From assembly GCA_965237675.1 (NCBI GenBank), contig OZ250150.1, forward strand, positions 4,192,001-4,256,000: a DNA stretch of 64,000 bases. Reading direction: 5' to 3'. The notes below the pieces were generated by a model. It was not told where the DNA came from, made no database searches, and worked only from the letters and a program-made list of their open reading frames with translations. The position numbers were made by a program, and so were the translations under genes. Source of the stretch: Candidatus Latescibacterota bacterium (GTDB lineage Bacteria > Latescibacterota > UBA2968 > GCA-2709665). Shown piece after piece: positions 1 to 60,152 of this stretch; position 1 is the stretch's first letter, and each line of letters opens with the position of its first letter.

Positions 1-1119
1 CATATTGACAGCGTTGATGCGTCGAATAGAAAACTCTTTATGCAATGCAGCTTCCAGTTTGGGAGCTTCATCGGAGTAAATCATTGCGTGGGTGTCAAAG
101 CGAAAGGGAACACTAGCATCACCAAGCTCTCTAACGCGGTCATCTGGGTCTACTCGTCTGGTCAAACCGATCTTGACTACGTCTTGGCCAAAGGAGCCGA
201 TATTGGAAATTACATATACATATCCAGATGTTGTCATCTCCGCCATCGACCTCGCCCGATCGCTGGTGGCGCGTGCCTGTGCTAGCGAATCTTCAAGTTC
301 AGCAATTCGCTTTTCATCGACACCCACTTCTTTTCGCGCCTTTTCCAATAAAATTCGGTATTTTCGCTCTTCTTCCTCGGCGACCTTCGCATCTGCTAAG
401 AGTTTTCTTTCCTCGCGTTCCGCCCGTGCAAGTTCGGCGCGTTCGTCCTTTTCGTTCTTTAGCTGTTCACGGTATTCGTGCGTCAAATGTAGTTCGTCAA
501 GTTTGAGTTTAACGTATGATTCATTTATCGTGATTTGAAGAGATGCGTTGGCGTTGTCGATTTGTTTGGTGGCGTTGAGGATACGCTTTTCCAATGCTTT
601 GACATTATTCCAACGTGTATTTGCGATCGCCGCTGTGCACTCGCCATTGAAGGCGCGCAATGATAGACGCACTTGACGATTGACTAGAGTCTTCCCTTTA
701 GATGAGCTTCCATCAAGAGTTACATCCTCCGGACAAATCGTCGCTGTTTTAGCCGACACCATTTTCTTCTGCGACGCTCTGATCTTCTTTATCTTTCTCT
801 TGTAAGTCTCACTATCGCTATAGTCGAAATGAGGCTCATATACGCCAAACTGAGCAAATGAGATACGCTCATCATATACTGCAACCTCTTGTTCGAGATC
901 TTCTAGCAAGCTTCGTTTTTCTGAGTATGTAGATCGTGTGACCTCTATCTCTTGCTGGATTTTATCAGCCTCATTCTTAAGTCGATCTACCTCTGCCTCC
1001 ATTGATATCACCGGGGAAAACTTGGAAATGAGCTTCTTAAGCTCTGATTTTGATTTCAACCAAATAACGAAAAACAAGATCATCAGAAGGAAACTTAGAA
1101 ACATCCATAGGTCGTACAT
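1..1119 (-). CDS. DUF4041 / T5orf172 (GIY-YIG-like, Mug113) domain protein, 3'-truncated by window edge
   Basis: Not in the ORF track because it runs off the edge. Manual translation from ATG 1119 (AGGAAGG RBS) gives a hydrophobic N-terminus MYDLWMFLSFLLMILFFVIWLK, a coiled-coil middle, then VYVISNIGSFGQDVVKIGLTRRVDPDDRVRELGDASVPFRFDTHAMIYSDEAPKLEAALHKEF, typical of DUF4041-T5orf172 proteins. Confidence 0.85.
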   Translation of the reverse strand, partial: MYDLWMFLSFLLMILFFVIWLKSKSELKKLISKFSPVISMEAEVDRLKNEADKIQQEIEVTRSTYSEKRSLLEDLEQEVAVYDERISFAQFGVYEPHFDYSDSETYKRKIKKIRASQKKMVSAKTATICPEDVTLDGSSSKGKTLVNRQVRLSLRAFNGECTAAIANTRWNNVKALEKRILNATKQIDNANASLQITINESYVKLKLDELHLTHEYREQLKNEKDERAELARAEREERKLLADAKVAEEEERKYRILLEKARKEVGVDEKRIAELEDSLAQARATSDRARSMAEMTTSGYVYVISNIGSFGQDVVKIGLTRRVDPDDRVRELGDASVPFRFDTHAMIYSDEAPKLEAALHKEFSIRRINAVNM

Positions 1120-1605
1120 TTGCTTTGCCCTTCCTACTTGTTTCCCCTTTACGGAGAGTGGTGAGCGATAAGCCTATCGTGGGAAGAATCGTTAGTGATT
1201 GGCTCGACCCGCCGTGCGGGTCTTCTTCAGTTCCAACTAAATCATAACACTTTCAGGACACGGGCATCAACACGTACAGAATGTCCAACTTCGCCTGCTG
1301 CTTCTCTCAAACACATAATTGGCCGGGAGTAATTTGGTACCAGCGACAGATTTCGCCGATCGTTACATCGGTATCGCGTAATAACTTCAGGATGCACAAC
1401 TTGCCTTCCTCGCTGCAGGTTCGGTGATCCTTATTCGTAGATGGGCGGCACCACCCTACCCACAATTTACTCTTGTCTGACGAGGTTAGAAAACGGAAAA
1501 TCTTACTCCCAATGATTGCTTACCTGTGGCACTCAAATTTTAGCTACGCATCACTCACATAATCTTTTATCAAGATTCCGTTGTTGTCGACGAGGAGATT
1601 AGACA

Positions 1606-1972
1606 ATGGGTACATGCCGACGACGTACTGGCGCTTCCGGTTGAAGACATCGACAGAGCTTCAACGTGGTATTGTAACGCGTTCGGGTTCAACGAAGTAA
1701 ATCGACATAGTGATCCGGTTCCAACAGTCGTGCTCGAACGGGACGGCGTCCGGATCGGATTCGCCGTCAATGGCGGCGACCCGGGACAGGAAGGCGCCGC
1801 CATCCGGGTTTCCGATATTCACAGAGCGCGACGGGAGTTGGAAGCCAGGGGGATCCAGACCGGTAATTGGCGCGTCGACGAGAGAGATGCACAGAAGTTC
1901 CAGGTGTTTTTCGTCGTCGCTCCGGACGCCCTCTGCTATTATTTCCACCAGCCGATCGAAAACGCAGACTGA
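1606..1972 (+). CDS. VOC/glyoxalase-family protein; 5' end apparently frameshifted or with a non-canonical start
   Basis: The frame of ORF 1730-1972 extends upstream as DDVLALPVEDIDRASTWYCNAFGFNEV, a VOC beta-alpha start, and ends FFVVAPDALCYYFHQP. The only RBS+ATG (GAGGAG...ATG 1606) is in another frame. Confidence 0.6.
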
Positions 1973-1978
1973 AAATAA

Positions 1979-2008
1979 GAAGCCGGACCCCCCGGGGCCC
2001 GGCTTTCT
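1979..2008. terminator. Probable bidirectional intrinsic terminator
   Basis: Hairpin AAGCCGGACCCC/GGGGCCCGGCTTT between convergent genes. Confidence 0.55.
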
Positions 2009-2050
2009 GTACTGTCACCCTTCAGCGAAAGAGGATGTCGGGGCGATCGC

Positions 2051-2746
2051 TTATCGTCCCTTCTTCCTCTTTTTCTCCTTCCAGGCGAAGGACTTGGGGA
2101 TGTAAGCGGCAGCATCCGGCGTCTTGCAGTTCGTTACACCGTGGTCCACCTCCACGGGGCCGATCCGCTTCGCGGCCGCAATCGCCCGATCGCGATACGT
2201 CGCGTTATACGTCCCGATTGCAATCAGCGCGTTGTTCATCGCATAGCGGACGCGGTTCGGTTGGCTGTAAATTTGCGACTCGATCTTCTCCAGACAGACG
2301 TCCAGGAGTTCCTCATTGACATCGTCGTGGTCGTTCAGGACCATCTCCGTAAAGGTGTTCCAGCCCGCGGTTGCGACCCACTCTCCTCGTCTGGATGTCC
2401 ATTTCCTGAAACGGGCCACGCCGGTCGGCGCTGCGCTGGCCAGCGTTCCCAACTCCCCAGCCAGGATGGAATTGTCGATTTCGCACGCCCAGAGGTCGAG
2501 TCGGGAAGCGTTCATCTTCGAGGGATCGGCGACACGTGCGGCCAGCGCCCGCGCGTCGTGATTGCCCGTGGCCCACAACGCCTGGGCGAGTTGTTGGTCC
2601 CGTTTGATCCGCCGAACCAGCTTGTTCAGGTTGGCATAGCTGACGCCATACATCGGCAGGTTGACCCCATGGCGCGCGTAGACCTTACGGTTCTGCGAAG
2701 TACCCAGTTCTTCCAGCGCTGTGAGTGTTTCGTCGAGCGTCATCAT
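2051..2746 (-). CDS. DNA alkylation repair protein (AlkD-like HEAT-repeat family)
   Basis: YGVSYANLNKLVRRIKRDQQLAQALWATGNHDARALA, RVRYAMNNALIAIG and IGPVEVDHGVTNCKTPDAAAYI are characteristic of this family. Confidence 0.85.
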   Translation of the reverse strand: MMTLDETLTALEELGTSQNRKVYARHGVNLPMYGVSYANLNKLVRRIKRDQQLAQALWATGNHDARALAARVADPSKMNASRLDLWACEIDNSILAGELGTLASAAPTGVARFRKWTSRRGEWVATAGWNTFTEMVLNDHDDVNEELLDVCLEKIESQIYSQPNRVRYAMNNALIAIGTYNATYRDRAIAAAKRIGPVEVDHGVTNCKTPDAAAYIPKSFAWKEKKRKKGR

Positions 2747-2791
2747 TTCCTCATATGGCTGGCAATTCGAGACCCTTCGATGGAAACGGCC

Positions 2792-3214
2792 TCAGTTTTC
2801 AGGATATTCGAAATTGACTTGCCACCTGATGCCGAACCTGTCGATGCACATGCCAAAATAGGCCCCCCAGAAAGCGACTTCCATTGGCATCACCGTTGTG
2901 CCCCGCTCCGACAGGCCGGCAAACACCCGGTCGGCTTCGTCCTTTCCGTCAGGGCTGACCGTAATCGAAAAGTTGGTGCCCACATCGGGCGGGGGACCGA
3001 ACGCAGAGCATGTGTCGCTGCCCATAAGCACACTGGAACCGATCGGCAATGACACGTGCATAATCCGGTCACGTTCGCTTTCCGGGACAGACATATCCGG
3101 CGGTCCGTCGCCAAAGGTCTGGATGAACAGAAATTCTCCTCCGAATACGGAACGGTAGAACTCAAACGCTTCCCGACATTGGTTGTCGAAGGTCAAATAG
3201 GTGTTGAGTCTCAC
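2792..3214 (-). CDS. VOC family protein (PhnB/YjdN-like)
   Basis: MRLNTYLTFDNQCREAFEFYRSVFGG...RIMHVSLPIG...LMGSD...FWGAYFGMCIDRFGIRWQVN. GTG start at 3214 after a GGAGG RBS. Confidence 0.9.
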   Translation of the reverse strand: MRLNTYLTFDNQCREAFEFYRSVFGGEFLFIQTFGDGPPDMSVPESERDRIMHVSLPIGSSVLMGSDTCSAFGPPPDVGTNFSITVSPDGKDEADRVFAGLSERGTTVMPMEVAFWGAYFGMCIDRFGIRWQVNFEYPEN

Positions 3215-46116: not shown

Positions 46117-46773
46117 TCAAAAATCATCAACTTCGGCAGTAGATGTGTCTTTGTCCACACGATCAGGGCATTCACTTGCGGGGATATTACAATACCGACA
46201 TTCCCCAAAACTCGGAACTCTTTTGGCTGGTTCATTCGATGCCAGCCTGCGTATTAACTCCGAAAATCGCTTGACGAATTTCTCATCAACAGCAGATGAC
46301 GGGACAGCAACCTCCCGCTCTCCGTATACAACCCGCCCCTCAAGAGCAACATTTCTGTATTTCTCAGGAAACGCTTTGGGAACTGCATACATGTAGAGCA
46401 TTACCTGAACGTGATCTGATGCCCTTGGCTGACCCGTTTTGATGTCTATGATTCTGCAGCTATTTCCCTTCTTTGCGATTAAATCAGGCTTTCCCCCAAC
46501 CGTCGCAGTCGTTCCTGAAAGGTGAAAATAATTTTGAGTCTCGGTTGACACATCAAAACCTTTATCTTCCAGTTTCTTTTGATATTTATTCCTGGCTGCT
46601 GTATGTTCGAGTTGCCAAGCAGTTGAATCAAAATCACCTGGCAAAGCAGTCCAACTTTTCCTGTCATGTTGGGCTTGAAACCAGTTTGCCCACTCACATG
46701 ACGTTTCACCAGTAAGCAACTTCGTCAACCACGTCACCCAAACATACGGAAGACCAGATCTCTTTTCGGCCAT
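46117..46773 (-). CDS. Cas4/RecB-like PD-(D/E)XK nuclease with probable Fe-S staple
   Basis: GKPDLIAKKGNSCRIIDIKTG...QVMLY (PD-DxK, QxxxY); Cys in TSCEW plus ECRYCNIPASEC. Confidence 0.85.
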   Translation of the reverse strand: MAEKRSGLPYVWVTWLTKLLTGETSCEWANWFQAQHDRKSWTALPGDFDSTAWQLEHTAARNKYQKKLEDKGFDVSTETQNYFHLSGTTATVGGKPDLIAKKGNSCRIIDIKTGQPRASDHVQVMLYMYAVPKAFPEKYRNVALEGRVVYGEREVAVPSSAVDEKFVKRFSELIRRLASNEPAKRVPSFGECRYCNIPASECPDRVDKDTSTAEVDDF

Positions 46774-49066: not shown

Positions 49067-50764
49067 TTACAAATTAACCCGCCATATACTCGTAGCCTGT
49101 TTCGCCATCCAAGCCTGGCGTGTGCGAATCTTCTCTACGGTCCAAGAGTCGTAGTCTTCTGCTAGTCTCCGGGTGATGGCGAAGTTACTCTTATGATAGA
49201 CCGGTCGTTTTTCGTCGAATCCCGCGTTTCCCAAATTGCGATTGTCAGCGGTCGCCATCAGTGTCATGTTTCCGAGACGGTAGGTGGACCCCTCTCTTTG
49301 CTGGTCGTTGAACTGCTCCCAGCCGTTGCCGGGATTCTCCGGCAGCACATGTTCGATGCCGTATCTCGCGCTCTCATTTTCATAGCTTTGTCCCGACATC
49401 TGTGCTTCCAGCCGGAACAGCATAAAGCGCACGATCTTTTTGTTACGACTACTAGTCGTTCGTAGTGCCTTGTCAGCAAACGCTGCCTTGAATTCCGGAT
49501 CATCCGGATACACGGGGTTAAGTTCTGCAATAGCAGCGGCCATGCTGTGTACACGGCCTTCCGCAATTCCCTGGGCAATCTGGTTGTACACGACCTCCTG
49601 CTCGTTGCTCTGGCGGCTACATATCACGTTGTAGCGAAACGAAACAACCGCTACGGCATGAAGAAATCGTCCGAAGCCGACACGGTCCTCTTCCGCGAAT
49701 CGCTCAAATGCCGCCAATAGTAATGCCAAGGGTTGACGGACGTTGAACATCTGCAACTGGGCCAGATTGGCGCGTTCTTCCGCTGTCCAAGAGTCGTCCT
49801 CCGGGCTTCGCAAGGCCGCATACACACGGGCACTCCTATCCATGTCGCGGATCAGCTCAAACGCTTTGGACTTATCGCAAATCGCGTTCCGAATGACTTT
49901 GAACAAGTCAGCCTTGCGCACCAGCCTGTTTCGGCTGTTCCAGAACACACGCAAAAACTCAGGAAGACTCTCACTCCCCAGCAAACCTACAATACCCTCC
50001 CATCGATCTTCCAGGTTGTCAATCTCGGATTCGTGCGGATTTCCGCGTGAGACGACCGAAAACAAGTAATTCTTGAGCAAATCGGTAGCGGACAAGCGCA
50101 CGCCGCGAGCATTTAGTGTCTCGAACACCTTGAAGGCATTCAATTCGTCAGTCACGGTAATGATCGTAAAGAACAGTTTATCTACAGCGACGTCAACGAA
50201 ACGCGCTACGGATTCACCTTCATTGCCACATCTTTCTCTGATATGCTCCTTGAACCAGATAAACGCGCGACGCATTAGATGTTCCGAGGCGTTTAGGCCC
50301 CTTTGCGGTAGGCGCTCCAGCGGCACCAGGTAATTCTGGTAAAAGCGATCGTTATGCCGGTTCAGCGTGAGCTTGGAGCGCGATATCAGGCTGACTGGAT
50401 CCAGGTAGCCGATGTAGTTGCTTCGTAACTGCTCAGCGCGTCGCTGTTGTGGGTCATTTGGATCGTCCGGCGGTGCTAGATCTACTAGATGCGCTATCGC
50501 CGCCAGCATCAACAAGCTAAGCGTGGTCATTCGCTGCTGTCCGTCGATAATGTCAAACGACCTGTTGTCCGAAGATTGCAGTACTAGGTAGCCCATGTAG
50601 TGAGCGGGTTCCGGGGCCTCGCCGAATAGCGCAACAATGTCCTGCCACAGGTCGTCCCATTCGTCGAGACCCCAGGAGTAGTCGCGCTGAAACATCGGCA
50701 CGCGATAGCTCAGCCCATTACCCATTAATTGGCGAAATGTGTTATTGGTCGTGTAAAAATTCAT
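49067..50764 (-). CDS. GmrSD-type type IV restriction endonuclease (DUF262 + DUF1524 HNH)
   Basis: VPMFQRDYSW, IIDGQQRMTT, FETLNARG, IEHVLPE and LGNMTLMATADNRNLGN. Confidence 0.9.
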   Translation of the reverse strand: MNFYTTNNTFRQLMGNGLSYRVPMFQRDYSWGLDEWDDLWQDIVALFGEAPEPAHYMGYLVLQSSDNRSFDIIDGQQRMTTLSLLMLAAIAHLVDLAPPDDPNDPQQRRAEQLRSNYIGYLDPVSLISRSKLTLNRHNDRFYQNYLVPLERLPQRGLNASEHLMRRAFIWFKEHIRERCGNEGESVARFVDVAVDKLFFTIITVTDELNAFKVFETLNARGVRLSATDLLKNYLFSVVSRGNPHESEIDNLEDRWEGIVGLLGSESLPEFLRVFWNSRNRLVRKADLFKVIRNAICDKSKAFELIRDMDRSARVYAALRSPEDDSWTAEERANLAQLQMFNVRQPLALLLAAFERFAEEDRVGFGRFLHAVAVVSFRYNVICSRQSNEQEVVYNQIAQGIAEGRVHSMAAAIAELNPVYPDDPEFKAAFADKALRTTSSRNKKIVRFMLFRLEAQMSGQSYENESARYGIEHVLPENPGNGWEQFNDQQREGSTYRLGNMTLMATADNRNLGNAGFDEKRPVYHKSNFAITRRLAEDYDSWTVEKIRTRQAWMAKQATSIWRVNL

Positions 50765-50941
50765 TAACTACCCACCTCCAGAATTCGTCTCGTTTAATCA
50801 GCTAGCTGATCCTTCGAAACGGTACTACACGCTCTCCTCTACACCTTCCAATATACACGAAACTCGGATGGAGAGTTGTCCCTGTTTCTATATTGGCACG
50901 TTGGGAATTCCAATCGTGACTTTGACGCAATCCTGAATTAG

Positions 50942-51613
50942 TCAGTGCTGGCAACCCGAGAGCTTTTCGACAATAGAATCGAAGTTTACCAACATCTGCC
51001 GTTCGAAAGATCCCCACGACCTATAACAACGCAACGAAGTTTTATGGAAATTGGGTGCGAACTTCGTGGCCTCGATTTTCGTCAGCACCACAGATAACGT
51101 TTCGTAGATATTTCTAATGTTTCCGTAATTGTCACGATTTGGTACTCTCTATGAATTCATGAACCCGCTTCTGATATTCGTTAGTCCTTCGTCGATATTA
51201 TAGTTCCAAAATTTCCTTTCCCTGTTGTTATTCGGAGATACGTCTCCGTTGCGGAAGTCTGACGACCAGCGACAGAAGTCATCGCACAACGACTGAAACA
51301 GCGCTTCCGAGACAACAAATTGATCCAGATCGGAATTTGGGACAAACGGGTTTCCGAATTTTCCTTTTTTTAATGACAACGACGAACACAGTCGTGCACT
51401 TCCGGTCATACTAATCGCTTTAGCCTCAACGCCAAGTTTCCTGCTAAGCCACGAACGAAGCGATTCGTAGACTGCCGGACACTCTCTGAATGCAAAGGGT
51501 ATCCCTTCCGAAAGCCATTGCCGAGCAATCGCTACTCGATCCGTGGCCGCGCCGTCGCACATAGCCTTCAGTAATTGTCTCACGGTCGGATAGCGGTCGG
51601 AAATTGTGGCCAA
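50942..51613 (-). pseudogene. Pol-beta-superfamily nucleotidyltransferase-like gene interrupted by an in-frame TAG at 51149-51151
   Basis: ISMTGSARL...FGNPFVPNSDLDQFVVS (GS-x-DxD). The frame stays open for 68 more sense codons after the TAG (RVPNRDNYG...SLRCYRSWGSFERQMLVNF...QH*), ending at TGA 50942-50944. Confidence 0.7.
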
Positions 51614-51626
51614 TGATGCAGAAAAC

Positions 51627-52241
51627 TCAAATGGCTTGTTTGCACACCTCTCGAATCGAGCCGGGCTCTACCTTTGCTCGGTTATATCGCGCCAATAGGT
51701 AGGCACATCTTTGTTCTATTTTGCGTAGCCGTTTGGCCGAAGCTTCCCTTGGCTGTGGATACTTGAGGCGAGCTACGAATAGAGCTGCAGAGTTCAAGTC
51801 TGATGAAGCTGGATCTATTCCTAACCGTTCACATGCCTGAACAAAGTTGTTCATTCGCCAACCGTAGTATGCTACCCACAAATAGAGTCCTGGAAGGTCT
51901 TCTCTTGGGACGTATCGAGTAAGCCAAACTGCCAGAACGATTTCTCGGGCCTTTCTCCGGACGGTGTTATCGTATCCCCGCATCAGGACCCGGGCAAGCT
52001 GCATCGCAATCGTGGAGCCACCTTCTTTACGGCCACAAACAGTCGTTCTCCAAGCAGCACGACATAATGCAACCGGATCGAAACCTGGATGGCGAAAGAA
52101 CCGATGGTCTTCGCCAAGAATAAGCAACGAGCACATTTGCGCGTTCGGATGCGCTTCGCACTGACGGTCGTATGCGCGTTTAACCCGATCGATTTCCCTT
52201 TTCAACTCTTTCCACATCCCATTCCAATACGTCACGATCAT
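51627..52241 (-). CDS. Stand-alone GT51 peptidoglycan transglycosylase-like domain protein without a membrane anchor
   Basis: GEDHRFFRHPGFD (motif 1), GGSTIAMQLAR (motif 2), RRKAREIVLA (motif 3) and LYLWVAYYG; no hydrophobic N-terminus; ATGA overlap with the mod stop. Confidence 0.85.
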   Translation of the reverse strand: MIVTYWNGMWKELKREIDRVKRAYDRQCEAHPNAQMCSLLILGEDHRFFRHPGFDPVALCRAAWRTTVCGRKEGGSTIAMQLARVLMRGYDNTVRRKAREIVLAVWLTRYVPREDLPGLYLWVAYYGWRMNNFVQACERLGIDPASSDLNSAALFVARLKYPQPREASAKRLRKIEQRCAYLLARYNRAKVEPGSIREVCKQAI

Positions 52242-55048
52242 ACCCTAAACACCTTCATCACCTCGTCCCCAAGGTGGTTGATCACCTTTACAGCGATCCG
52301 ACCGGAACTCGGTTTGGGGAAAGGCCGTGAAATGTCGCTGTGGAGGGTTTCCCAGGCATCCTGATTTATTTCCGCCTTTAGTGTGGTCTTGAGAGATTTG
52401 TAGGGGTCGTTGGCACCTAGGAAGTAGGCATGACGGACGAAAAAGCTCTCGTTGTTGTAGTCTGTATCCACGAACCAGCATGCGATTCCGTCTGCATTGT
52501 CACTCCTGATTTCGCCGGTGTTGGGATGGAACACGTCCACGCCGTTGACTTTGACCTGGATTTGACTATCGTCCGCGTCGAGGATGTCTATATCCGGTTC
52601 GCCAAAGATGACGAAAAGGTTGCCTTTACCGGTGTTTTTGAGGTCGTCGGCCATGTGCAGGTCGGCATTCATGCGTGCCTTGAGGACCGGAACCCGTCCG
52701 ACCTTGTTGAAGTCGGACGCGTGGGCGTCGTAATTGAAGGCGCAGGCGATCAGCACATCGAAGTCGGCGTCAGCTGCCTCCCGGGCGGCCTCAACGAGAT
52801 CGGGACGGGAGACGGTCCCGAATTCTGGGCCGATGAAGATGCCGGCGCGTTTCTCCAAGCCGTAGACGGATTCCGCTTCGACGTAGGTACCCTCTGCGCA
52901 AACGAGATCGCCGGGCCAGGGTCTCATCCCGGAGAATGATATGCGGTCCTCCTTGTGCGCCTGCTGGACGCCGGAGGTCTTTAGATTGTCCAGGATTATT
53001 CCGGCGAAGTCCTGCTTCTCTCCGTAGCCGAGCTTCCCTTCGGCAACGTTGTCGATTAACGCGTCTTCCTCATCGACACCGAGGAGTCGGTGCGGCGACA
53101 GGCTCTCTACCGTGAAGGGTCCAGCGACACGGACCTTTTTCTTGTCCTCGTAAGGCTTGTCGTAGAGGTATTCGTAGTCCGCTTTCCCGGCGATGGAGGC
53201 GTCAACTTCCTTTTGTCGAGCGATCCGCAGTTCCCACCATTCCTTGTGTAACTTTCTCGCTTCCCTGGACCAATCATCTTGGGAATCACGGGGGATTTCC
53301 CACGCCTCATAGGATGTCCGAAGTTCCTCGTTTAGCTTCGCGCGGAGAGTCTCGAGCGTTTCCTGGAATTTCTCCCAGATCACATCGATTTCGGCGTTGT
53401 TGGCGATGGACTTGAGGGTAATGTGGGGGACGCGTTCATACACGAAACCATGGCGGATGTTGTGGTAGGTCGGTGTTTCGGAGGGTGACTTGCGGACGAG
53501 CGCGGCTTCCTTGATCTGTCCTTCGCGGCTGTCGGCGAGCAGGTAGTAGGGATAACGGGCGCCCATGGTGCGGGCACGGGCAAGCGCCAGGGCAACCCGT
53601 GATGTGTCGATGGTGATCCAGCGGCGTCCCCACTGCTCCGCCACGTACGCAGTAGTGCCGGAGCCGCAGGTGGGGTCGAGGACGAGGTCGCCGGGGTCAG
53701 TGGTCATCAGTATGCAGCGTTGGATGATCTTCTGAGCCGTTTGAACTACGTAAATCTTTTCCTCAGTGAAAGAGCCAGTCAGCGTATCAGTCCAGAGATT
53801 TCCTATGGGAGTGACGGGAAAGTCGTCAATGAATCTAATGTAACTAAGGCTGTTTATTGCGTGCCCAAGGCGCATTGATTGAGAAAGTCGTATCATCCCG
53901 ACAAAATTCGTCTTCCAGTATCCGCGACCAGAACTAAAGACCCTACCTTGATGGTAAAACTCAAAATTTGTTGTTTCGCCTCCGCTCTGGGACGTTATTG
54001 TATCGTGGCGATAGATTTTCGCGTCATTTCCGATTTTTGTTCGATCGGACCGTTCCTCTTTCGTCATTGAAATACGACTCAGATCAGGCCTTTGCAGCTT
54101 CGAATACTGTCCTCCCGCGGTGAAGGTGGCGTCCTTCGTTGTGAATGGTCTCCGAAACTTCAGTACGTATATGTCTCTAGAGTACCAAATCAAGTAATCT
54201 GATACGGACGCAAGGTTCTTGTCCGTTTGGCTACTGGTCTTTTTTATTGTGATGAGAGAAACACAATTCTCCTCTCCAAACACCTCGTCCATCAACGCCC
54301 GCACCCGATGCACATTCTCGTCCCCAATCTGCACAAAGACTGACCCGCTCTCAGCCAGCAGGTCCCGCGCGACCGTGAGCCTATCACGCAAATACGTCAA
54401 ATACGAATGAATGCCATCCCGCCACGTATCCCGAAACGCCTTTACCTGTTCCGGCTCGCGGGTGATGTGGTCGGCATTGCCGTCCTTGACGTTGCGGCTG
54501 GTCGTGGACCACTGGAAGTTGGAGTTGAATTTGATGCCGTAGGGAGGGTCGACGTAGATGCATTGCACCTTGCCGCGCAACCCCTCCCGCTCCGCGAGCG
54601 ACGCCATGACCTGCAAGCTGTCCCCGAGAATCATCCGGTTCGACCAGTTGGCGTCGTGCTTGTAGAACTCCGTCTGGGCGTCCGCGTTCGGCAATCCGTT
54701 GAAATCGGCGAACAGGTCGGCCTGGGTGCCGGATTCGCCGTCCCCCTTCTCCGCCACCGATTCTTTGCTCCGCTGCCGCAGGTCATCGATCAGGATCTTC
54801 GGATGAACCTTCTCCTGGATGAAGAGCGGCGGCGCCTCCACGACGAGGTCCGACCAGTTTTGCTGGTCTTTGCCGCGCCATATAAGCTGCGGGTCAAGGT
54901 CCCGGTTACGCCGCTCATAGGCGACTTCAATCGGGCTACGGTCGCCTTCCGCCATCACCGATTGATACTCGGCCGTCGGAATATTCTTTCGCGATGCGTC
55001 CTTGTGCTGGAGGGTTTCGATGGTTTTGCTCGATCTTCGTTTCCTCAT
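52238..55048 (-). CDS. mod: Type III restriction-modification methyltransferase (Mod subunit)
   Basis: NRMILGDSL, CIYVDPPYG (catalytic) and DLVLDPTCGSGTT (SAM-binding) in beta-class order, with a long C-terminus. Start 55048 (GGAG RBS) or 55066. Confidence 0.93.
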   Translation of the reverse strand: MRKRRSSKTIETLQHKDASRKNIPTAEYQSVMAEGDRSPIEVAYERRNRDLDPQLIWRGKDQQNWSDLVVEAPPLFIQEKVHPKILIDDLRQRSKESVAEKGDGESGTQADLFADFNGLPNADAQTEFYKHDANWSNRMILGDSLQVMASLAEREGLRGKVQCIYVDPPYGIKFNSNFQWSTTSRNVKDGNADHITREPEQVKAFRDTWRDGIHSYLTYLRDRLTVARDLLAESGSVFVQIGDENVHRVRALMDEVFGEENCVSLITIKKTSSQTDKNLASVSDYLIWYSRDIYVLKFRRPFTTKDATFTAGGQYSKLQRPDLSRISMTKEERSDRTKIGNDAKIYRHDTITSQSGGETTNFEFYHQGRVFSSGRGYWKTNFVGMIRLSQSMRLGHAINSLSYIRFIDDFPVTPIGNLWTDTLTGSFTEEKIYVVQTAQKIIQRCILMTTDPGDLVLDPTCGSGTTAYVAEQWGRRWITIDTSRVALALARARTMGARYPYYLLADSREGQIKEAALVRKSPSETPTYHNIRHGFVYERVPHITLKSIANNAEIDVIWEKFQETLETLRAKLNEELRTSYEAWEIPRDSQDDWSREARKLHKEWWELRIARQKEVDASIAGKADYEYLYDKPYEDKKKVRVAGPFTVESLSPHRLLGVDEEDALIDNVAEGKLGYGEKQDFAGIILDNLKTSGVQQAHKEDRISFSGMRPWPGDLVCAEGTYVEAESVYGLEKRAGIFIGPEFGTVSRPDLVEAAREAADADFDVLIACAFNYDAHASDFNKVGRVPVLKARMNADLHMADDLKNTGKGNLFVIFGEPDIDILDADDSQIQVKVNGVDVFHPNTGEIRSDNADGIACWFVDTDYNNESFFVRHAYFLGANDPYKSLKTTLKAEINQDAWETLHSDISRPFPKPSSGRIAVKVINHLGDEVMKVFRV

Positions 55049-55093: not shown

Positions 55094-55249
55094 TCAGACG
55101 TCAACGGACAGGCAACCTTCAACGGCCTCGTAGAGGTTGGTCAGCAACGCTTCGAAGGATTCCGCTTGCGTCGCACATCCAGGGATTGAGGGTACTTCCG
55201 CCCAATATCCGCCTTCTTCCGCTTGATGGATTTCAACTTTCAGTTTCAT
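55094..55249 (-). CDS. hicB: HicB-family antitoxin, short/truncated (51 aa), no hicA partner
   Basis: Below the ORF-track cutoff. Manual translation: [51 protein letters not shown]. Confidence 0.8.
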
Positions 55250-55266: not shown

Positions 55267-57018
55267 TTACGGACCAAGTGTGTGGGCTAGTGGTACGTAT
55301 TCCAACATCGCCGACGTTCCGATCATATCAACGAACCGCACAATCCATTCAAACCCGTTGACATCTGTGAGCCGCAACGGCTGATTCAATTTGAAGTGAA
55401 CGGGTTGCTCCTTGCCTTCGTCAATGGCGACGTTCGTCGCGTAAAGATACGTGCGGTCGAGATTGTCGAGGATCGGGTTGAGTCGCCCGGTTAGGTTCGG
55501 CAAATGGCCGGTTCTATCCGTGAACACCGCCGAGCCACCCATCGGCAACGGTTCAAGCTGCACGTGCAGCGATTCCGACGGGCGCCAATCCCGCTCCACG
55601 TGGGCGGTGTACCCCTGTGCCGCGCAGAAAACGGTAATGGGAAGTTCCGAGTGAAATCCAAAAGCGACCCGGCCAAACGTATCGGTTTTCCCCTCCATCC
55701 AGGTCTTGTTGGGATACAGTGTAACTACCTGCGCATCTGCAAGCGGCTGGCCGGCCGCGAATACCAACACTTCCCCTTTGATCCCCGTTACCGGCGGAGG
55801 GGCGGAAGGTATAGTCAGCCGCAGTTCTGCACCTCCGATCAGTTCGTAGTCCGGGTCGTGCCCTGTCAGCTCGTGGGTCTGCTCATAGATGATTGGAACT
55901 CCTTCGCCGCGTAGTTCCAGGAAGTACTGCCGATCACCCGCGCCGATGATTTCCCCTACCGCAAGCATACGGAGGATGGACGCGAGCGTTTCGTTGCGGG
56001 TGGCTTGTCGATTGCGCATGGCCTCGATAGGCAGCGTGTTGGGCAGGGCGCCCGGCGAGTACAACTCAAGGCGATCGTCAAAGATGAAGAGCCGTATCTT
56101 CCCGTTCTCTATCGAGTAGTCGCGGTGTACCACGGCGTTGACAGTGGCCTCGAATACTGCTCGCGGGCTAAATTGGGGAATCTCAACCCGCCCAGGATCC
56201 TTGCGCGCCGCCACCCGCGTGTTGAGCCTGACGAAATTGACGGTATCGCGAATTTGCTGGTCCAACGGACCGGTGATTGACGAGGCATCGTGCTGGCTTG
56301 CACGGCCGAGAACCGTGCCTCGATAGCGAATGGCCTCGACCAGAGCGCCTGGTATGTGCTCATCCGGGCGTGCGGTGCAGAGTAACACGCCGGCCACCGT
56401 TGCGCGGGTCACGCCGCTGTCATCCTCCCGCACCAACCCCAGCTTTGTGAGTTGGACCGTTGCAGGCTCGGTGGCGCGCGAGCTCAGGAATCGATCCGCC
56501 AAAGTCTCGTCGAGCGTGTTGGTTCCGGTTCCGGAAACGATCGCTTCGTCAGGACCAGGTAGACCAGAACGCCCCCGCTGCTGAAACAGACGGTTCAATG
56601 CTTCCGACGACAGTTCACGCTTCGCGCTGCCTTTACGGGAAAAATATCCTCCGGGGCTCTTGTGGACCAACGCGCTCTGTTCGACATGGACGATCAGCAC
56701 AAACGAACCGTCCGGCAGAGCCAGCCGTTGGGTGACGAACGCCAACGGAGGACGGATGCTATCCGAGCAAATCTCGCTGACGAAGGCTTCCAACGCATCC
56801 ATCTGTTTCCGGTTCATCGACCGCACCTCACCAGCGTCGGATACGCTGAAGATCACTGTGCCGCCAATGGTATTACCAAAAGCGGCCAACTCGTCTGCAA
56901 CCATGTCACGACGAGGCTCACGAACCCGGTTGTTGGCAAACACGACTTCTTTAAACTCAACGCTGCTGTCCTCGCCGAGTTTGAGTCGCTGCAACAGGCT
57001 ATCCGTGTTCCATAACAT
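55267..57018 (-). CDS. Schlafen/AlbA_2 + HATPase_c_4 (RecG-C-like) protein with an extra C-terminal beta-rich domain
   Basis: [10 protein letters not shown]...[19 protein letters not shown] (AlbA_2), [12 protein letters not shown]...[10 protein letters not shown]...RNETLA...GEGV (HATPase_c_4), and C-terminal GQPLADAQV...GKTDTFG (carboxypeptidase-regulatory/transthyretin-like pattern). Confidence 0.82.
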
Positions 57019-57053: not shown

Positions 57054-60000
57054 TTATCCGCGTGTTTCCGTCTTTAGATTCAGATCTCGGGGGCTTGCCT
57101 GGGCTGAAAACCGCTCGATTATTTCGTTGAACGCTGCTTCCACCTTGGACTCAAAGTCCGCCTGCATCTCATACACGTCAGTAAACTCTGCGAAAGCCCA
57201 GCGACCATAATTCCCGTGATTGTTTACTCCGGGCACCCAGTAGGTGTCCATGGTATCCTTCTTATGTTTGGCGTCCTCACCGCGATAGCCCTTGATCTCG
57301 ACAATAAGATGAAGGAGATCGTCCTGGCCTCGTCCGTCGTCAACGAGAACAATAAAATCAGGAATGTACGTCCGCGTCACGGAGCCGCGCCGGTAAGGAA
57401 CCTCGAGACCAAGATTGTGGTTTTTTACGTAAGCCCTGACGCTGCGATGGGATTCAGCGACGCGGCAAAATTCCGCTTCCCAGTCGCTATCCAAGACCAC
57501 CCAATTGACGTGGCAGCGGCGAGAATCCGTCTCGTAACGGCTGGTCCTGGTGGTATTGAAATTCACCTGAGCCGTCGAGCCTACCGGATTATACGGATCG
57601 AGCACGGCCTTGACCGGGCGACTGCCGATTGCCGCCCGAGTGATGGCGGCCGTGATGCGTTCACAGGCCATATCCGCAAGTTCCTGGTACATCAGTTGCG
57701 CAGGATATGTGCTACCCTTGCAAGTAAGGCAGGTATCGAGCCACTTCCGGGTAATGCTCTTGAGCTGTCCGAATAAATGAAGCTTGGGTTCCTCGCCCGG
57801 GTCCCGCCATTTGGTATATAGCAGCCGCTGGGTGAGGTAGAACAGAAGCGTGGATTGACGAATGTCATTTGTATGAACCAGATTGAGGTCCACGCCTTTG
57901 CCGATAATCCCCTGGTTTGTCGTGATGGATGGTCCGATGATATCCGGTGTTAATTCCAGAACCGAGTCCTCATTGAACTCGGCAGTTAACCTTTCGTCGG
58001 GCAGTTCCACTCGATATCCTGCCACTCGCGGGAAACGAATTTCAAGCGCGTCCCTTTCGGGTCGCACGGCCCTCACATGGACGGTTTCTCGTGGTGGTGT
58101 CGGCGTGACAACGACTGGCTTTGCGGTAAAGTCGAAAGGTATTCCCAGAACATCAGCGTACTCGACATCAAACAGCCCTTCGTCGTTGAGTTTGTAGGAC
58201 TGCCGGCGCAGCGCACGACCGACAACCTGCTCGCAAAGCAACTGGGTACCGAAAGCGCGAACACCCAGGACGTGACTGACGTTGTTCGCATCCCAACCCT
58301 CCGTGAGCATCGATACCGAAACCACACAACGAATCGAATCCCCCAGTCTACCGGATTTGCCGACGGTGTTCATGACCTCGCGGAGCAGTTCCTGGTCGCT
58401 GATCTTTTCGGCTTGTTGGCGATCGCCTGTACGTTCGATTATTTCTCGTCGAAAGCGTTCGATTTCATTGATAGCCATCTTTCGGAATTTCGTATCCAGC
58501 GCATCACCGGACTCCAACTGCTCACTGTCGATCAGTAGAGTGCGAGGGCGCGGGTGCCGCTGGCCATATTCATCGAAGTTGCGAAACAACTCCAGGCGTC
58601 CGTTCTCAAACGTCGATGAACCATCTTCGTTTTCACGATAAAAACCAGAGATATAATCGTATACCAGCTTGGAGGTCGAGGTGTTGTTGCAGACTACGAT
58701 AAAACATGGTGGCACGCCGATGCCGGCTTCCTCCATCAACTCGAACGTCTTCTTATAATGCCCATATAGTGCTGCCAACGCAGTCTGCAACTCCACGGGC
58801 AGACTGAGGGGATCGAGTGTCTTAGCCTTACCCCGCCCTTTCTTCGGCATATCACTTCGAATGTGTTCCCATAGGTTGCGGAACTTCGGCATATCCCCGC
58901 CGGGGATATTGTCGGCGACTGGCACGCGGGGCAGTTTGACGATGCCGCATTCGATGGCGTCCATCAGGGAGAAATCGCACATCGTCCACGGAAACAATGT
59001 CCCTTCTGCGTATCCCGAACCGCGCAGAAAGAAAGGCGTTGCAGAAAGATCCAGCACCCGGTTGATGCCGAGCTTTTTCCCCACCGTCTCCAGTCCCGAA
59101 ATCCAAAGGCGCGCGGCTTCCGTGTTCTTCTTGGCTTCCTTACTTTCGTCTCCCTTGAGTGTACCTTCCTCCCCTTCCCCCGGCTTTTCACGATAGCAGT
59201 GATGCGCCTCATCATTAAGGACCATGATGTTCTTGATTCCCATAAGTTCGGGCATGACCCGTTGGAGCATCTGTCCTTCAGTTTCCAAGGTAGACAGCGA
59301 CTCACCCCGACCCTGAAGCAAGGAACGGCCGCCCTTTGATAGTTCCAAACGTTCACGCAGCTTGAATGCGTGATAATTGGTGATGACGATCTTGGACTTT
59401 TCCAAGTCGGGCAGCATGTCGTTCGGAACCAGTTCGCTGCTCTGATAGTAACTGTCCGGGTCATTTGGCTGCAGGACACGCAGGCGATCCTTGATGGTGA
59501 TGCCGGGGGTGACAACGAGGAAGCCGCGCGTAAACCGGCTGCTCTGCGGCCGGCGTACTGCGTTGATGGTTTGCCAGGCGATCAACATCGCCATAACAGT
59601 GGTCTTGCCGGCGCCGGTTGCCAATTTAAGCGCCAGGCGCTGCAACCCTGTATTCGCTTCGTTGTTGGAACTTGCCAAGTGATCGAGGAATCTCTTGCCG
59701 GAAACACCGGCATTGGGCGCAACTTCTGTTAGCCAGATGACGGTCTCTACCGCCTCGACCTGGCAAAAGAAAGGTCGAATGTCATTGAACCGATGGTGCC
59801 GCCAATGCTGGAGCAGTCGCGCCGTTTCAGGCGACACCCGCCATTGTTTCGGATTTCGCAACCGTCGCCATCGGTCGACCTGTAACCGAACGCCGCTGAT
59901 GATTTCGGTTAGATCGTACCGCTGGCCTTCAGTCCCGAGTTTCCTGGCCGCCTCGTCGAAAACAATCGCGGATTGATCTACAGGCGATCCCTTCTGCTTC

Positions 60001-60152
60001 TTCGGTTTCGGAATCGGCGAAATGAACTCGGCGCGTCGCCGCATTTCGACGATTTTTTGCGTCGGCTGGCCTGTCTTGTCCAGTTCCCAGTGCGTGTTCG
60101 GGTACTCGTACGGCGAGTTGAGTATCGGTTGTTCGAAGAATTGATCGCTCAA
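57054..60152 (-). CDS. res: Type III restriction endonuclease (Res subunit, BPTD_3080-like)
   Basis: PFFCQVEAVET, KLATGAGKT, NDEAHHCY, LSATP, SMLTEGWD, EQVVGRALRR and C-terminal YIPDFIV...VEIKG nuclease; TTG start with AGGAG RBS. Confidence 0.93.
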   Translation of the reverse strand: MSDQFFEQPILNSPYEYPNTHWELDKTGQPTQKIVEMRRRAEFISPIPKPKKQKGSPVDQSAIVFDEAARKLGTEGQRYDLTEIISGVRLQVDRWRRLRNPKQWRVSPETARLLQHWRHHRFNDIRPFFCQVEAVETVIWLTEVAPNAGVSGKRFLDHLASSNNEANTGLQRLALKLATGAGKTTVMAMLIAWQTINAVRRPQSSRFTRGFLVVTPGITIKDRLRVLQPNDPDSYYQSSELVPNDMLPDLEKSKIVITNYHAFKLRERLELSKGGRSLLQGRGESLSTLETEGQMLQRVMPELMGIKNIMVLNDEAHHCYREKPGEGEEGTLKGDESKEAKKNTEAARLWISGLETVGKKLGINRVLDLSATPFFLRGSGYAEGTLFPWTMCDFSLMDAIECGIVKLPRVPVADNIPGGDMPKFRNLWEHIRSDMPKKGRGKAKTLDPLSLPVELQTALAALYGHYKKTFELMEEAGIGVPPCFIVVCNNTSTSKLVYDYISGFYRENEDGSSTFENGRLELFRNFDEYGQRHPRPRTLLIDSEQLESGDALDTKFRKMAINEIERFRREIIERTGDRQQAEKISDQELLREVMNTVGKSGRLGDSIRCVVSVSMLTEGWDANNVSHVLGVRAFGTQLLCEQVVGRALRRQSYKLNDEGLFDVEYADVLGIPFDFTAKPVVVTPTPPRETVHVRAVRPERDALEIRFPRVAGYRVELPDERLTAEFNEDSVLELTPDIIGPSITTNQGIIGKGVDLNLVHTNDIRQSTLLFYLTQRLLYTKWRDPGEEPKLHLFGQLKSITRKWLDTCLTCKGSTYPAQLMYQELADMACERITAAITRAAIGSRPVKAVLDPYNPVGSTAQVNFNTTRTSRYETDSRRCHVNWVVLDSDWEAEFCRVAESHRSVRAYVKNHNLGLEVPYRRGSVTRTYIPDFIVLVDDGRGQDDLLHLIVEIKGYRGEDAKHKKDTMDTYWVPGVNNHGNYGRWAFAEFTDVYEMQADFESKVEAAFNEIIERFSAQASPRDLNLKTETRG

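Follow-up and report, generated by a model that had tools for sequence, protein, structure and literature searches.

An apparently cytoplasmic GT51-like transglycosylase paired with an MNT-like nucleotidyltransferase-like protein, traced from a decayed gene pair in a Candidatus Latescibacterota genome

Introduction

Enzymes of the glycosyltransferase family GT51 are textbook extracytoplasmic polymerases of the bacterial cell wall and targets of antibiotics. What, then, is a GT51 domain without a membrane anchor doing next to a nucleotidyltransferase-like gene among restriction genes? This question is raised by two adjacent genes in a stretch of 64,000 nucleotides (nt) from the genome of a Candidatus Latescibacterota bacterium (GenBank assembly GCA_965237675.1, contig OZ250150.1, positions 4,192,001 to 4,256,000 of the forward strand), here called the window and numbered from its first letter. 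An earlier note, made from the letters of the window alone, had proposed that the two genes form a new defence cassette coupled to the preceding type III modification gene (mod). The GT51-like protein, its partner, their homologues and their genomic surroundings were analysed computationally, and the results are described below.

Results

A family of short GT51-like proteins with the GT51 catalytic residues

The 204 amino acid (aa) protein encoded by the first gene of the pair was found to match the Pfam family Transgly (PF00912) with an E-value of 6.4e-25 and a score of 88 bits (gathering cut-off 27), residues 35–185 being aligned with 152 positions (25–176) of the 178-position profile. GT51 enzymes carry three motifs, namely EDxxFxxHxG with the catalytic Glu (motif 1), GxSTITQQ (motif 2) and RKxxE with a second Glu (motif 3). 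The three corresponding stretches that had been picked out in the translation, EDHRFFRHPG, GGSTIAMQLAR and RKARE, are all present, and the window copy keeps each of the 15 residues that are invariant in its family (E44, D45, R47, H51, G53, D55, G74, S76, T77, A79, M80, Q81, R96, K97 and E100). Motif 1 (E44, D45, R47, H51, G53), the residues G74, S76 and T77, and motif 3 (R96, K97, E100) are invariant in 63 aligned sequences, and motifs 1 and 3 are also visible in the chain of penicillin-binding protein (PBP) 1a from Aquifex. In motif 2, TQQ is replaced with AMQ (A79-M80-Q81) in all 63 aligned members, and YLN has become YLW in most of the family. The altered motifs to which the earlier note drew attention are therefore present, but most members of the family share the change from QQ to MQ with the window copy; four divergent members, in which the two proteins are fused, retain QQ.

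In Aquifex PBP1a, the solved GT51 domain is matched collinearly by a profile of the family over ~133 residues (E 4e-22), and this profile also aligns with MtgA from S. aureus. A word-indexed homologue search returned 536 GT51-like relatives, nearly all of ~190–230 aa and clustering at 190–210 aa, which share a conserved N-terminus of their own. In the NCBIfam scan the window protein stayed below the cut-off of all 14 equivalog families listed, with for example 42.9 against 182.65 bits for MtgA (TIGR02070) and 88.9 against 494.2 bits for PBP_1c, and its identity to the three class A PBPs of its own genome does not exceed 29%. No transpeptidase domain was found in it by Pfam and NCBIfam scans, which bears out what had been said from the translation.

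These data bear directly on the most ordinary explanation of the locus, already named as one that could undo the proposal, namely that an ordinary MtgA or class A PBP with an anchor has left a fragment here, with a chance open reading frame (ORF) behind it. Public names speak for it: a plasmid homologue is called a biosynthetic peptidoglycan transglycosylase at NCBI, and a few homologues have PBP-type names at JGI. The 536 homologues of ~190–210 aa, the scores below the equivalog cut-offs, the low identity to the PBPs and the strict pairing described below rule a fragment out, and this explanation is given practically no weight. Judged by its sequence, the protein looks like an enzyme with a full set of catalytic residues and not like a relic.

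Two paralogous small ORFs of 262 and 224 aa were also noted in the same genome (C1:2251459-2251716 and C1:2255465-2255734). Both have an N-terminal hydrophobic segment and match only the C-terminal half of Transgly (positions ~89–174).

Side of the membrane

Anchors were sought as the mean Kyte-Doolittle hydropathy over 19 residues, a segment being called at 1.6 or above. The highest mean in the window protein was 0.61, with nothing resembling a transmembrane (TM) or signal segment, so that the lack of both, as read earlier, was upheld. Anchors of the PBPs encoded by the same genome reach 2.2–2.4. A hydrophobic segment is absent in 110 of 120 GT51-like relatives, and the remaining ten have one at the N-terminus, of the type MSVE-(~20 hydrophobic residues)-PRLRRRIA, in which an acidic or neutral N-tail comes before, and an Arg-rich flank after, the hydrophobic stretch. 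Under the positive-inside rule an Arg-rich flank stays on the cytoplasmic side, so this arrangement would be an N-out/C-in anchor that leaves the catalytic domain in the cytoplasm. The fusions described below contain no hydrophobic segment between the GT51 and the partner halves, and a GT51 domain joined without an intervening TM segment to a domain of nucleoside triphosphate (NTP) type would likewise be placed on the cytoplasmic side. The median isoelectric point (pI) was 9.98 for the GT51-like proteins and 9.06 for the partners. By the usual lack of an anchor, the reversed anchor of the minority and the fusion to an NTP-type domain, the GT51 domain apparently works on the cytoplasmic side of the membrane, as had been supposed for the window protein.

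The partner

The reading frame of the second gene opens with TTG at 51613, 13 nt after the stop codon of the GT51-like gene (51627–51629), and runs for 154 codons to an in-frame TAG and for 68 more to the stop at 50942–50944. The position of this gene and its GS...DLD signature are as the earlier note had them. The homologue search returned 150 relatives of the partner, nearly all of 219–240 aa and none with a Pfam family. Residues G71-S72 and D95/D97 are invariant in alignments of 39 and of 75 partner sequences; the motif pair of the Pol-beta superfamily is hG[GS] ... [DE]h[DE]h. The spacing from GS to DxD is ~22 residues, longer than in the minimal nucleotidyltransferases (MNTs) encoded locally. 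Among the further positions that vary little or not at all are W, E, N, D, P, R, C, Y and W, and the near-invariant D162 (numbering of homologue P0121), which is N in the window copy, is a candidate third catalytic carboxylate.

Scans of the window partner with Pfam, NCBIfam and PADLOC gave no match, in Pfam not even at an E-value of 10. Across 75 members, weak sub-threshold matches to PF01909 were obtained in 16 (best E 0.008), and to any other family in three at most. Alignment of the partner profile with 29 MNTs from related genomes by hhalign (-mact 0.01) gave 65.6% (P 5.8e-5) and placed GS on GS and SDLD on SDVD, and three controls at the same setting gave 1.4%, 0.1% and 0.1%. Alignment with AbiEii-type proteins gave 0.8%, a comparison of low power, as the control of MNTs against AbiEii also gave 0.3%. 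In the ESM Atlas, 29 of 30 clusters for the stored homologue P0169 were unnamed, and one, which is a lead only, has PF01909 in 11% of its members. A signal or TM segment is absent in 118 of 119 partner sequences. With moderate confidence, the sequence data point to an MNT-like nucleotidyltransferase (NTase)-like protein of the Pol-beta superfamily.

Pairing, fusion and spread

Loci were taken from a species-level genome collection of 185,579 species. With the partner profile, 47 loci were obtained from it; 46 of them have a GT51-like gene immediately upstream in the same orientation, and the one exception begins at base 12 of its contig. Conversely, matches to the partner hidden Markov model lie directly downstream on the same strand at 75 of the best 80 of the 244 loci found with the GT51-like profile. 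Of the five loci lacking a partner, two are at contig edges (L125, L151), one has a different downstream gene (L107), one has a frameshifted GT51 (L148) and one a divergent GT51 (L157). At many loci the two genes overlap by 14 nt, the partner beginning with ATG or GTG and reading M-(K/E)-P-F, and many members of the lists of 536 GT51-like and 150 partner proteins come from contigs of equal length.

Seven full-length fusions were also found (P0262, P0320, P0321, P0376, P0324, P0240 and P0241), with Transgly N-terminal (88–125 bits) and the whole partner C-terminal; P0241 is an ORF of the isolate genome Vibrio mytili CAIM 528. As they are only 33–45% identical to each other, the fused form is old or has arisen more than once. 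One of them, P0324, has an additional C-terminal extension of ~180 residues (453–634) with no Pfam match. Co-occurrence of the homologues, on which the earlier proposal depended, is thus borne out by the loci searched from either side and by the fusions. Over 73 intact pairs, the identity matrix of the GT51-like protein is correlated with that of the partner at r 0.66, a value reached in none of 999 permutations, although related sequences inflate this test; the sequences fit a pair inherited and transferred as one unit.

An exhaustive profile search for the partner returned 1170 representatives (50% identity clusters) at E ≤0.001, of which 277 at E ≤1e-30. The partner loci are labelled Acidobacteriota, Latescibacterota, Gamma-, Beta- and Alphaproteobacteria, Desulfobacterota-type, Nitrospirota, Campylobacterota, Chlorobium and Bacillota, and the 88 unique loci examined for intactness likewise bear labels of many phyla. 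Within the order to which the window genome belongs, the partner occurs in five of 41 genomes searched; both genes are unbroken in three (G001, G011, G016), and G023 has a remnant of 32 residues.

No GT51 and NTase pair and no cytoplasmic GT51 protein was found described in the literature, in agreement with the earlier note, which knew of no such system, although supplementary tables of large defence-discovery screens might list the family. The transglycosylases in the defence papers found are tRNA-guanine transglycosylases. The pair is apparently real, conserved and undescribed.

Decay of the window copy and a second copy

The in-frame TAG of the window partner (Table 1) is backed by contigs of four public runs from two studies, one of which may be the source sample; these cover the whole 1401 nt with no substitution, and a deletion of 1 nt at 51365 was seen in one contig of low depth. 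Read-through of the TAG by a suppressor or an altered code was ruled out, since no amber suppressor tRNA was found in the genome and TAG is a common stop there, terminating 544 of 2019 long ORFs. The residues beyond the TAG still carry the family invariants, so the break is recent. With the partner truncated and its ancestral start lost (Table 1), the window copy is probably non-functional, and what had been called a cassette at this position contains a decayed partner gene that probably does not work.

A second copy of the pair was found in the same genome at C1:4382007-4383243, ~138 kb downstream of the window copy and 44–51% identical to it. Here the partner is intact, and the GT51 gene has a degenerate N-terminal anchor and a frameshift just before GGST, which is known from the assembly only and may be an assembly error. 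The genome thus holds one intact GT51 gene (first copy) and one intact partner (second copy), and alternatively the window GT51 may rely on the second copy's intact partner.

Among the 88 unique loci, both genes are intact at 73. Only the partner is affected at nine (two at contig edges), only the GT51 gene at three (two at contig edges) and both at three; these counts are small, and many of the genomes are metagenome-assembled, so that frameshifts may be assembly errors.

Genomic context

No conserved third gene was found among 870 crude ORFs (the longest non-overlapping ones, some of them false) from the 47 partner loci and the window, in which the only large cluster was the pair itself. Up to three genes away from the pair there are 217 ORFs, which tallies of the 25 commonest families each divide into two groups. 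One consists of DNA methylases, AAA_15/21 ATPases, DDE transposases, Mrr_cat, ResIII, type I R subunits, RhuM and the YobI ATPase, and the other of glycine cleavage, ribonucleotide reductase, RNA polymerase, OMP decarboxylase, hydantoinase and other housekeeping genes. Of 20 immediate neighbours at ten other loci, eight have no Pfam match, five belong to defence or mobile families (patatin, DDE transposase, RhuM, HsdR, PRTase-CE), two to SOS mutagenesis (SRAP, ImuB-like) and five are ordinary or unclear. The single plasmid record with the pair, pM830MA of Aliarcobacter cryaerophilus, has it amid HNH+AAA, IS21, DUF4365, PLD-like, TIR and DUF4917 genes.

Insertion-sequence genes were also seen beside the pair. 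At L148 (3500-5700) the frameshifted GT51 is followed by IS21-like ORFs, as read from ORF translations; at L086 (8660-10969, plasmid) annotated istA/istB genes of IS21 type stand directly beside the pair; and at L041 a DDE transposase gene does so.

In the subclade closest to the window copy the surroundings are of one kind. Among 130 locus entries, duplicates included, mod or its 3'-remnant accompanies the pair at five distinct loci besides the window. At L001 mod is directly upstream of the pair and a UvrD-like gene downstream; at L002 a 65-residue remnant of the mod 3'-end is directly upstream, and GmrSD (89% identical) and then a Cas4-like gene follow; at L089/L167 there is a 136-residue mod remnant upstream and a Cas4-like gene downstream; at L169 a mod remnant and GmrSD are beside the pair; and at L046 res and mod lie 3.4 kb upstream and a UvrD-like gene downstream. 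UvrD-like and/or Cas4-like homologues thus recur next to the pair (L001, L002, L046, L089/L167), and L166 also has a UvrD-like gene beside it. The metagenomic relatives P0010, P0014 and P0018 have N-terminal extensions that are the mod 3'-end read out of frame. The closest subclade is always within such a restriction-modification/GmrSD/UvrD island, and so the pair has been carried along here together with the 3'-end of a type III mod gene, within defence islands of a single type. The coupling to mod claimed earlier therefore applies to this subclade only, while neighbours vary in the rest of the family; in the same way the defence context holds for the closest subclade and the plasmid locus, whereas family-wide the neighbours are mixed and PADLOC models are unmatched.

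The features around the pair in the window are collected in Table 1. The location of the pair between mod and gmrSD was confirmed by the PADLOC MTase_III and Pfam GmrSD_N/C matches, and the ATGA overlap of the mod stop with the GT51 start is found as it had been read. Upstream, res stands ahead of mod with a third gene, of the AlbA_2 type, in between, and the 51-codon ORF is presumably akin to a HicB/UPF0150-type antitoxin. The GC content is 0.44 at 50800–51400, 0.50–0.52 over 51200–52400, 0.51–0.54 in gmrSD and 0.56–0.60 in most of mod; the pair had been called richer in AT than its flanks, which is so at 50800–51400, but the rest of it is close to gmrSD. A scan of 50600–52500 for promoters and terminators gave no site of either kind.

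Table 1 Features of the window around the GT51-like gene and its partner.
Feature	Position in the window	Strand	Basis or remark
res-like DEAH-helicase gene	57054-60152	-	helicase motifs read in translation
SLFN_AlbA_2/HATPase_c_4 gene	55267-57018	-	weak match to PADLOC pAgo-associated models
51-codon ORF	55094-55249	-	between AlbA_2 gene and mod
type III mod, 942 aa	52238-55066	-	Pfam N6_N4_Mtase; PADLOC MTase_III PDLC03632, E 0; directly upstream of the pair
ATGA overlap of mod stop and GT51-like start	52238-52241	-	read from the sequence
GT51-like gene, 204 aa	51627-52241	-	ORF; Pfam Transgly PF00912
AAC at the family's partner-start position, 14 nt inside the GT51 3'-end	51638-51640	-	junctions of 13 loci compared
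partner gene, MNT-like nucleotidyltransferase-like, decayed, 223 codons including TAG	50945-51613	-	translation, homologue alignments
in-frame TAG, partner codon 155	51149-51151	-	W in closest homologues
gmrSD-type gene, 565 aa	49067-50764	-	Pfam GmrSD_N/GmrSD_C; PADLOC HEC-06/Orf5; directly downstream of the pair
UvrD-like helicase, 689 aa	46845-48914	-	GajB-like in PADLOC
PD-(D/E)XK/Cas4-like nuclease gene	46117-46773	-

The end of mod was also observed outside this locus. In at least dozens of contigs from the public runs that cover the TAG, the last 50–60 nt of mod are matched at ≥90% identity. These contigs part from the window at ~52238–52248, at or just inside the mod stop, and the summed depth over 52238–52300 rises from 5–65 to 1000–3000. 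The mod end is widely shared among contigs, and the sequence beyond it is variable.

Discussion

The pair is tentatively read as a mobile module of the toxin-antitoxin or abortive-infection kind, made up of two translationally coupled genes or of one fusion; this may well be right, though we would stop short of calling it probable. It is suggested by the patchy distribution (five of 41 genomes of one order) over many phyla, by the absence of a third gene, by the islands of the plasmid and of the closest subclade, and by decay at 15 of 88 loci. GT51 chemistry requires a sugar-1-pyrophosphate donor and the 4-OH of GlcNAc as acceptor. The GT51-like enzyme, with the machinery for such a donor and acceptor, would be the effector and would act at the membrane's inner face on precursors linked to undecaprenyl pyrophosphate (lipid I, lipid II) before they are flipped, or alternatively on the pool of UDP-MurNAc or UDP-GlcNAc. 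Consumption of the precursors would tie up the carrier lipid and halt wall synthesis. The partner would restrain the enzyme by binding, by nucleotidylylation or by both, like MntA acting on HepT in type VII pairs, and infection or loss of the partner would set the effector free. In this specific form, in which an inside-facing GT51, tethered or recruited, polymerises or consumes pre-flip lipid II, serves a mobile module of immunity or addiction as its suicide or growth-arrest effector, and is switched by the NTase through nucleotidylylation, the proposal is possible but rather doubtful.

Several observations weigh against this reading of the pair. Off contig edges, loss of the partner alone was seen at seven loci and in the window, and loss of GT51 alone at one locus and in the second copy, and if GT51 were constitutively toxic, the excess should lie the other way. 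Antitoxins usually diverge faster than toxins, and mean identity among the 73 intact pairs is 42% for each protein, that is, both diverge at equal rates. Many loci lie amid housekeeping genes (ribonucleotide reductase, ketoacyl synthase, hydantoinase, rpoC-type), and the pair was met in only one plasmid record, in no phage record and in one of 2.9 million viral contigs. PADLOC-DB 2.0.0 has no family for the GT51-like protein, the 154-aa partner or the 223-aa read-through product. As to the partner, its NTase matches stay below the Pfam threshold, hhalign against the MNTs at default settings gives 0.08%, and a search of PDB sequences with the profile of the partner matched no solved structure (best E 0.26). 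The Pol-beta-like nucleotidyltransferase of the earlier note therefore stands on its invariant GS/DxD core, the weak PF01909 matches and the hhalign result with -mact 0.01, and does not reach the Pfam threshold or withstand the default alignment.

The decay pattern slightly favours reversed roles, the partner being a toxin of the MenT/AbiEii kind and the GT51-like protein its antitoxin or regulator. The NTase toxins MenT and AbiEii are encoded by the downstream genes of their pairs, and in most type II pairs the antitoxin is upstream, an order that is found here too. Orphan antitoxins are a common product of decay, which would suit the more frequent loss of the partner, and a basic character like that of the partner (median pI 9.06) is often seen in toxins directed at nucleic acids. 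On the other hand, an antitoxin that merely binds would not hold all catalytic and substrate residues of GT51 invariant, the partner profile gives 65.6% against MNTs and 0.8% against AbiEii-type proteins (at low power, with the control at 0.3%), and a decay count of eight against two is not significant (binomial p ~0.1 by our own estimate), so that reversed roles seem unlikely. We consider similarly improbable a sensor-and-effector logic along the lines of the earlier note, in which the NTase would detect infection and then either produce a nucleotide signal or modify GT51 and so switch it on, in the manner of CD-NTase or Hailong systems and not by neutralisation. Pairing, fusion and the cytoplasmic evidence serve such a sensor and effector as well as they serve a toxin and antitoxin, the closest subclade and the plasmid locus are in defence islands, and decay of a single gene would be costless, in keeping with the mixed pattern. 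However, the partner of ~220 aa is much smaller than CD-NTases, minimal MNTs are the only proteins to which its profile is linked, a diffusible signal would be of little use in seven covalently fused proteins, and PADLOC/CBASS-type models are unmatched.

A role outside conflict, in which the two enzymes form an accessory pathway for a cytoplasmic or inner-leaflet glycan or nucleotide sugar, such as an alternative envelope polymer or the recycling of precursors, would agree with the metabolic genes around many loci, with the equal rates of evolution, with the resemblance of both proteins to enzymes under purifying selection and with the seven fusions, as fusion of consecutive pathway enzymes is common. 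We judge it to have only a small chance of being correct, given the patchy occurrence (five of 41 genomes of one order, 244 loci in 185,579 species), the lack of recurring flippases, polyprenyl transferases and sugar-nucleotide synthases among the commonest families of the 217 neighbours, the 15 decayed loci of 88 together with one genome that has two divergent half-broken copies, and the defence or mobile islands of the closest subclade and the plasmid. Far less probable still is a secreted effector with its immunity protein, in which GT51 would be exported non-classically onto the periplasm of a rival and the partner would protect the producer. Many contact-dependent effectors have no signal peptide, and neither has the GT51-like protein. 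Toxins that reach lipid II from outside exist, TelC being an example (PMC12419801). Nevertheless, the partner, which lacks signal and TM segments in 118 of 119 cases, would be unable to protect the periplasm, covalent fusion is unexpected for a toxin and its immunity protein, no secretion-system, Rhs or PAAR genes are among the 25 commonest families of each of the two neighbour tallies, and the anchored variants have the N-out/C-in signature.

The favoured reading, a mobile module with GT51 as effector, can be set beside several known systems. By sequence the GT51-like proteins belong to the same fold family as the GT51 domains of MtgA and the class A PBPs (Aquifex PBP1a, 2OQO/3NB6; S. aureus MtgA, 3VMQ/3HZS), with which they share the invariant motif 1, GxST of motif 2 and motif 3 and the size of about a bare GT51 domain. 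They differ in being mostly anchorless, with a reversed anchor in a minority where MtgA and the PBPs have an N-in/C-out one, in scoring below the equivalog cut-offs, in the AMQ and YLW of most members, in being paired with or fused to an NTase-like protein, and in their patchy occurrence, which is not one copy per genome. AbiEii/MenT modules (DUF1814) likewise have a Pol-beta-type GS...DxD core in the downstream of two genes, but the partner here has ~220 aa against 300–350 aa, and the upstream gene encodes an enzyme and not an antitoxin of transcription-factor type. The epsilon/zeta (PezAT) systems offer a cytoplasmic toxin that corrupts the supply of peptidoglycan precursors; zeta is, however, a kinase acting on UDP-GlcNAc, unrelated to GT51 in sequence or fold, and its antitoxin is a binding protein.

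Similar in design is the type VII pair HepT/MntA, a small two-gene module of an enzyme and a minimal MNT-like NTase, in which MntA AMPylates the HepT toxin; minimal MNTs are best known as antitoxins of this kind. A further likeness is that genomes with abundant toxin-antitoxin systems contain many copies, which are often decayed; the present genome has 19 PF01909 matches. Here, however, the enzyme is a GT51 glycosyltransferase in place of a HEPN RNase, it comes first and the NTase second where MntA first is usual, the partner has roughly double the length of an MNT and conserved regions of its own at both termini, and nucleotidylylation is only hypothesised. Fused MNT-HEPN type VII toxin-antitoxin proteins provide a published precedent for the fusions (PMC13000451). 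An attack on pre-flip lipid II has been proposed for other immune effectors, those of the Min-Wnt/Lipocone group, and TelC, reported in the same paper to have activity outside the cell only, has the same proposed target (PMC12419801); by that account these proteins are of another superfamily and cleave a phosphoester, in contrast to the glycosyl transfer considered here. Small mobile conflict modules of two components, one of them an NTase, are thus a known kind of system, and a GT51 component facing the cytoplasm is not known.

A whole GT51 family that has all catalytic residues and is yet apparently cytoplasmic will be surprising to specialists of the cell wall, and the present public names, biosynthetic transglycosylase or PBP, are probably misleading for its members. 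The value of the window copy lies in pointing to this family, of which the cultured isolates Vibrio mytili CAIM 528 and Pseudomonas floridensis GEV388 carry intact pairs or fusions. The strict pairing and the repeated fusion with an MNT-like protein lead to the hypothesis that the GT51-like enzyme is controlled by nucleotidylylation. If the proposed mechanism is true, the family would add a new kind of enzyme to the effectors of toxin-antitoxin and defence systems, a 'wrong-side' cell-wall polymerase as a new effector class, and would give the GT51 fold its first cytoplasmic role.

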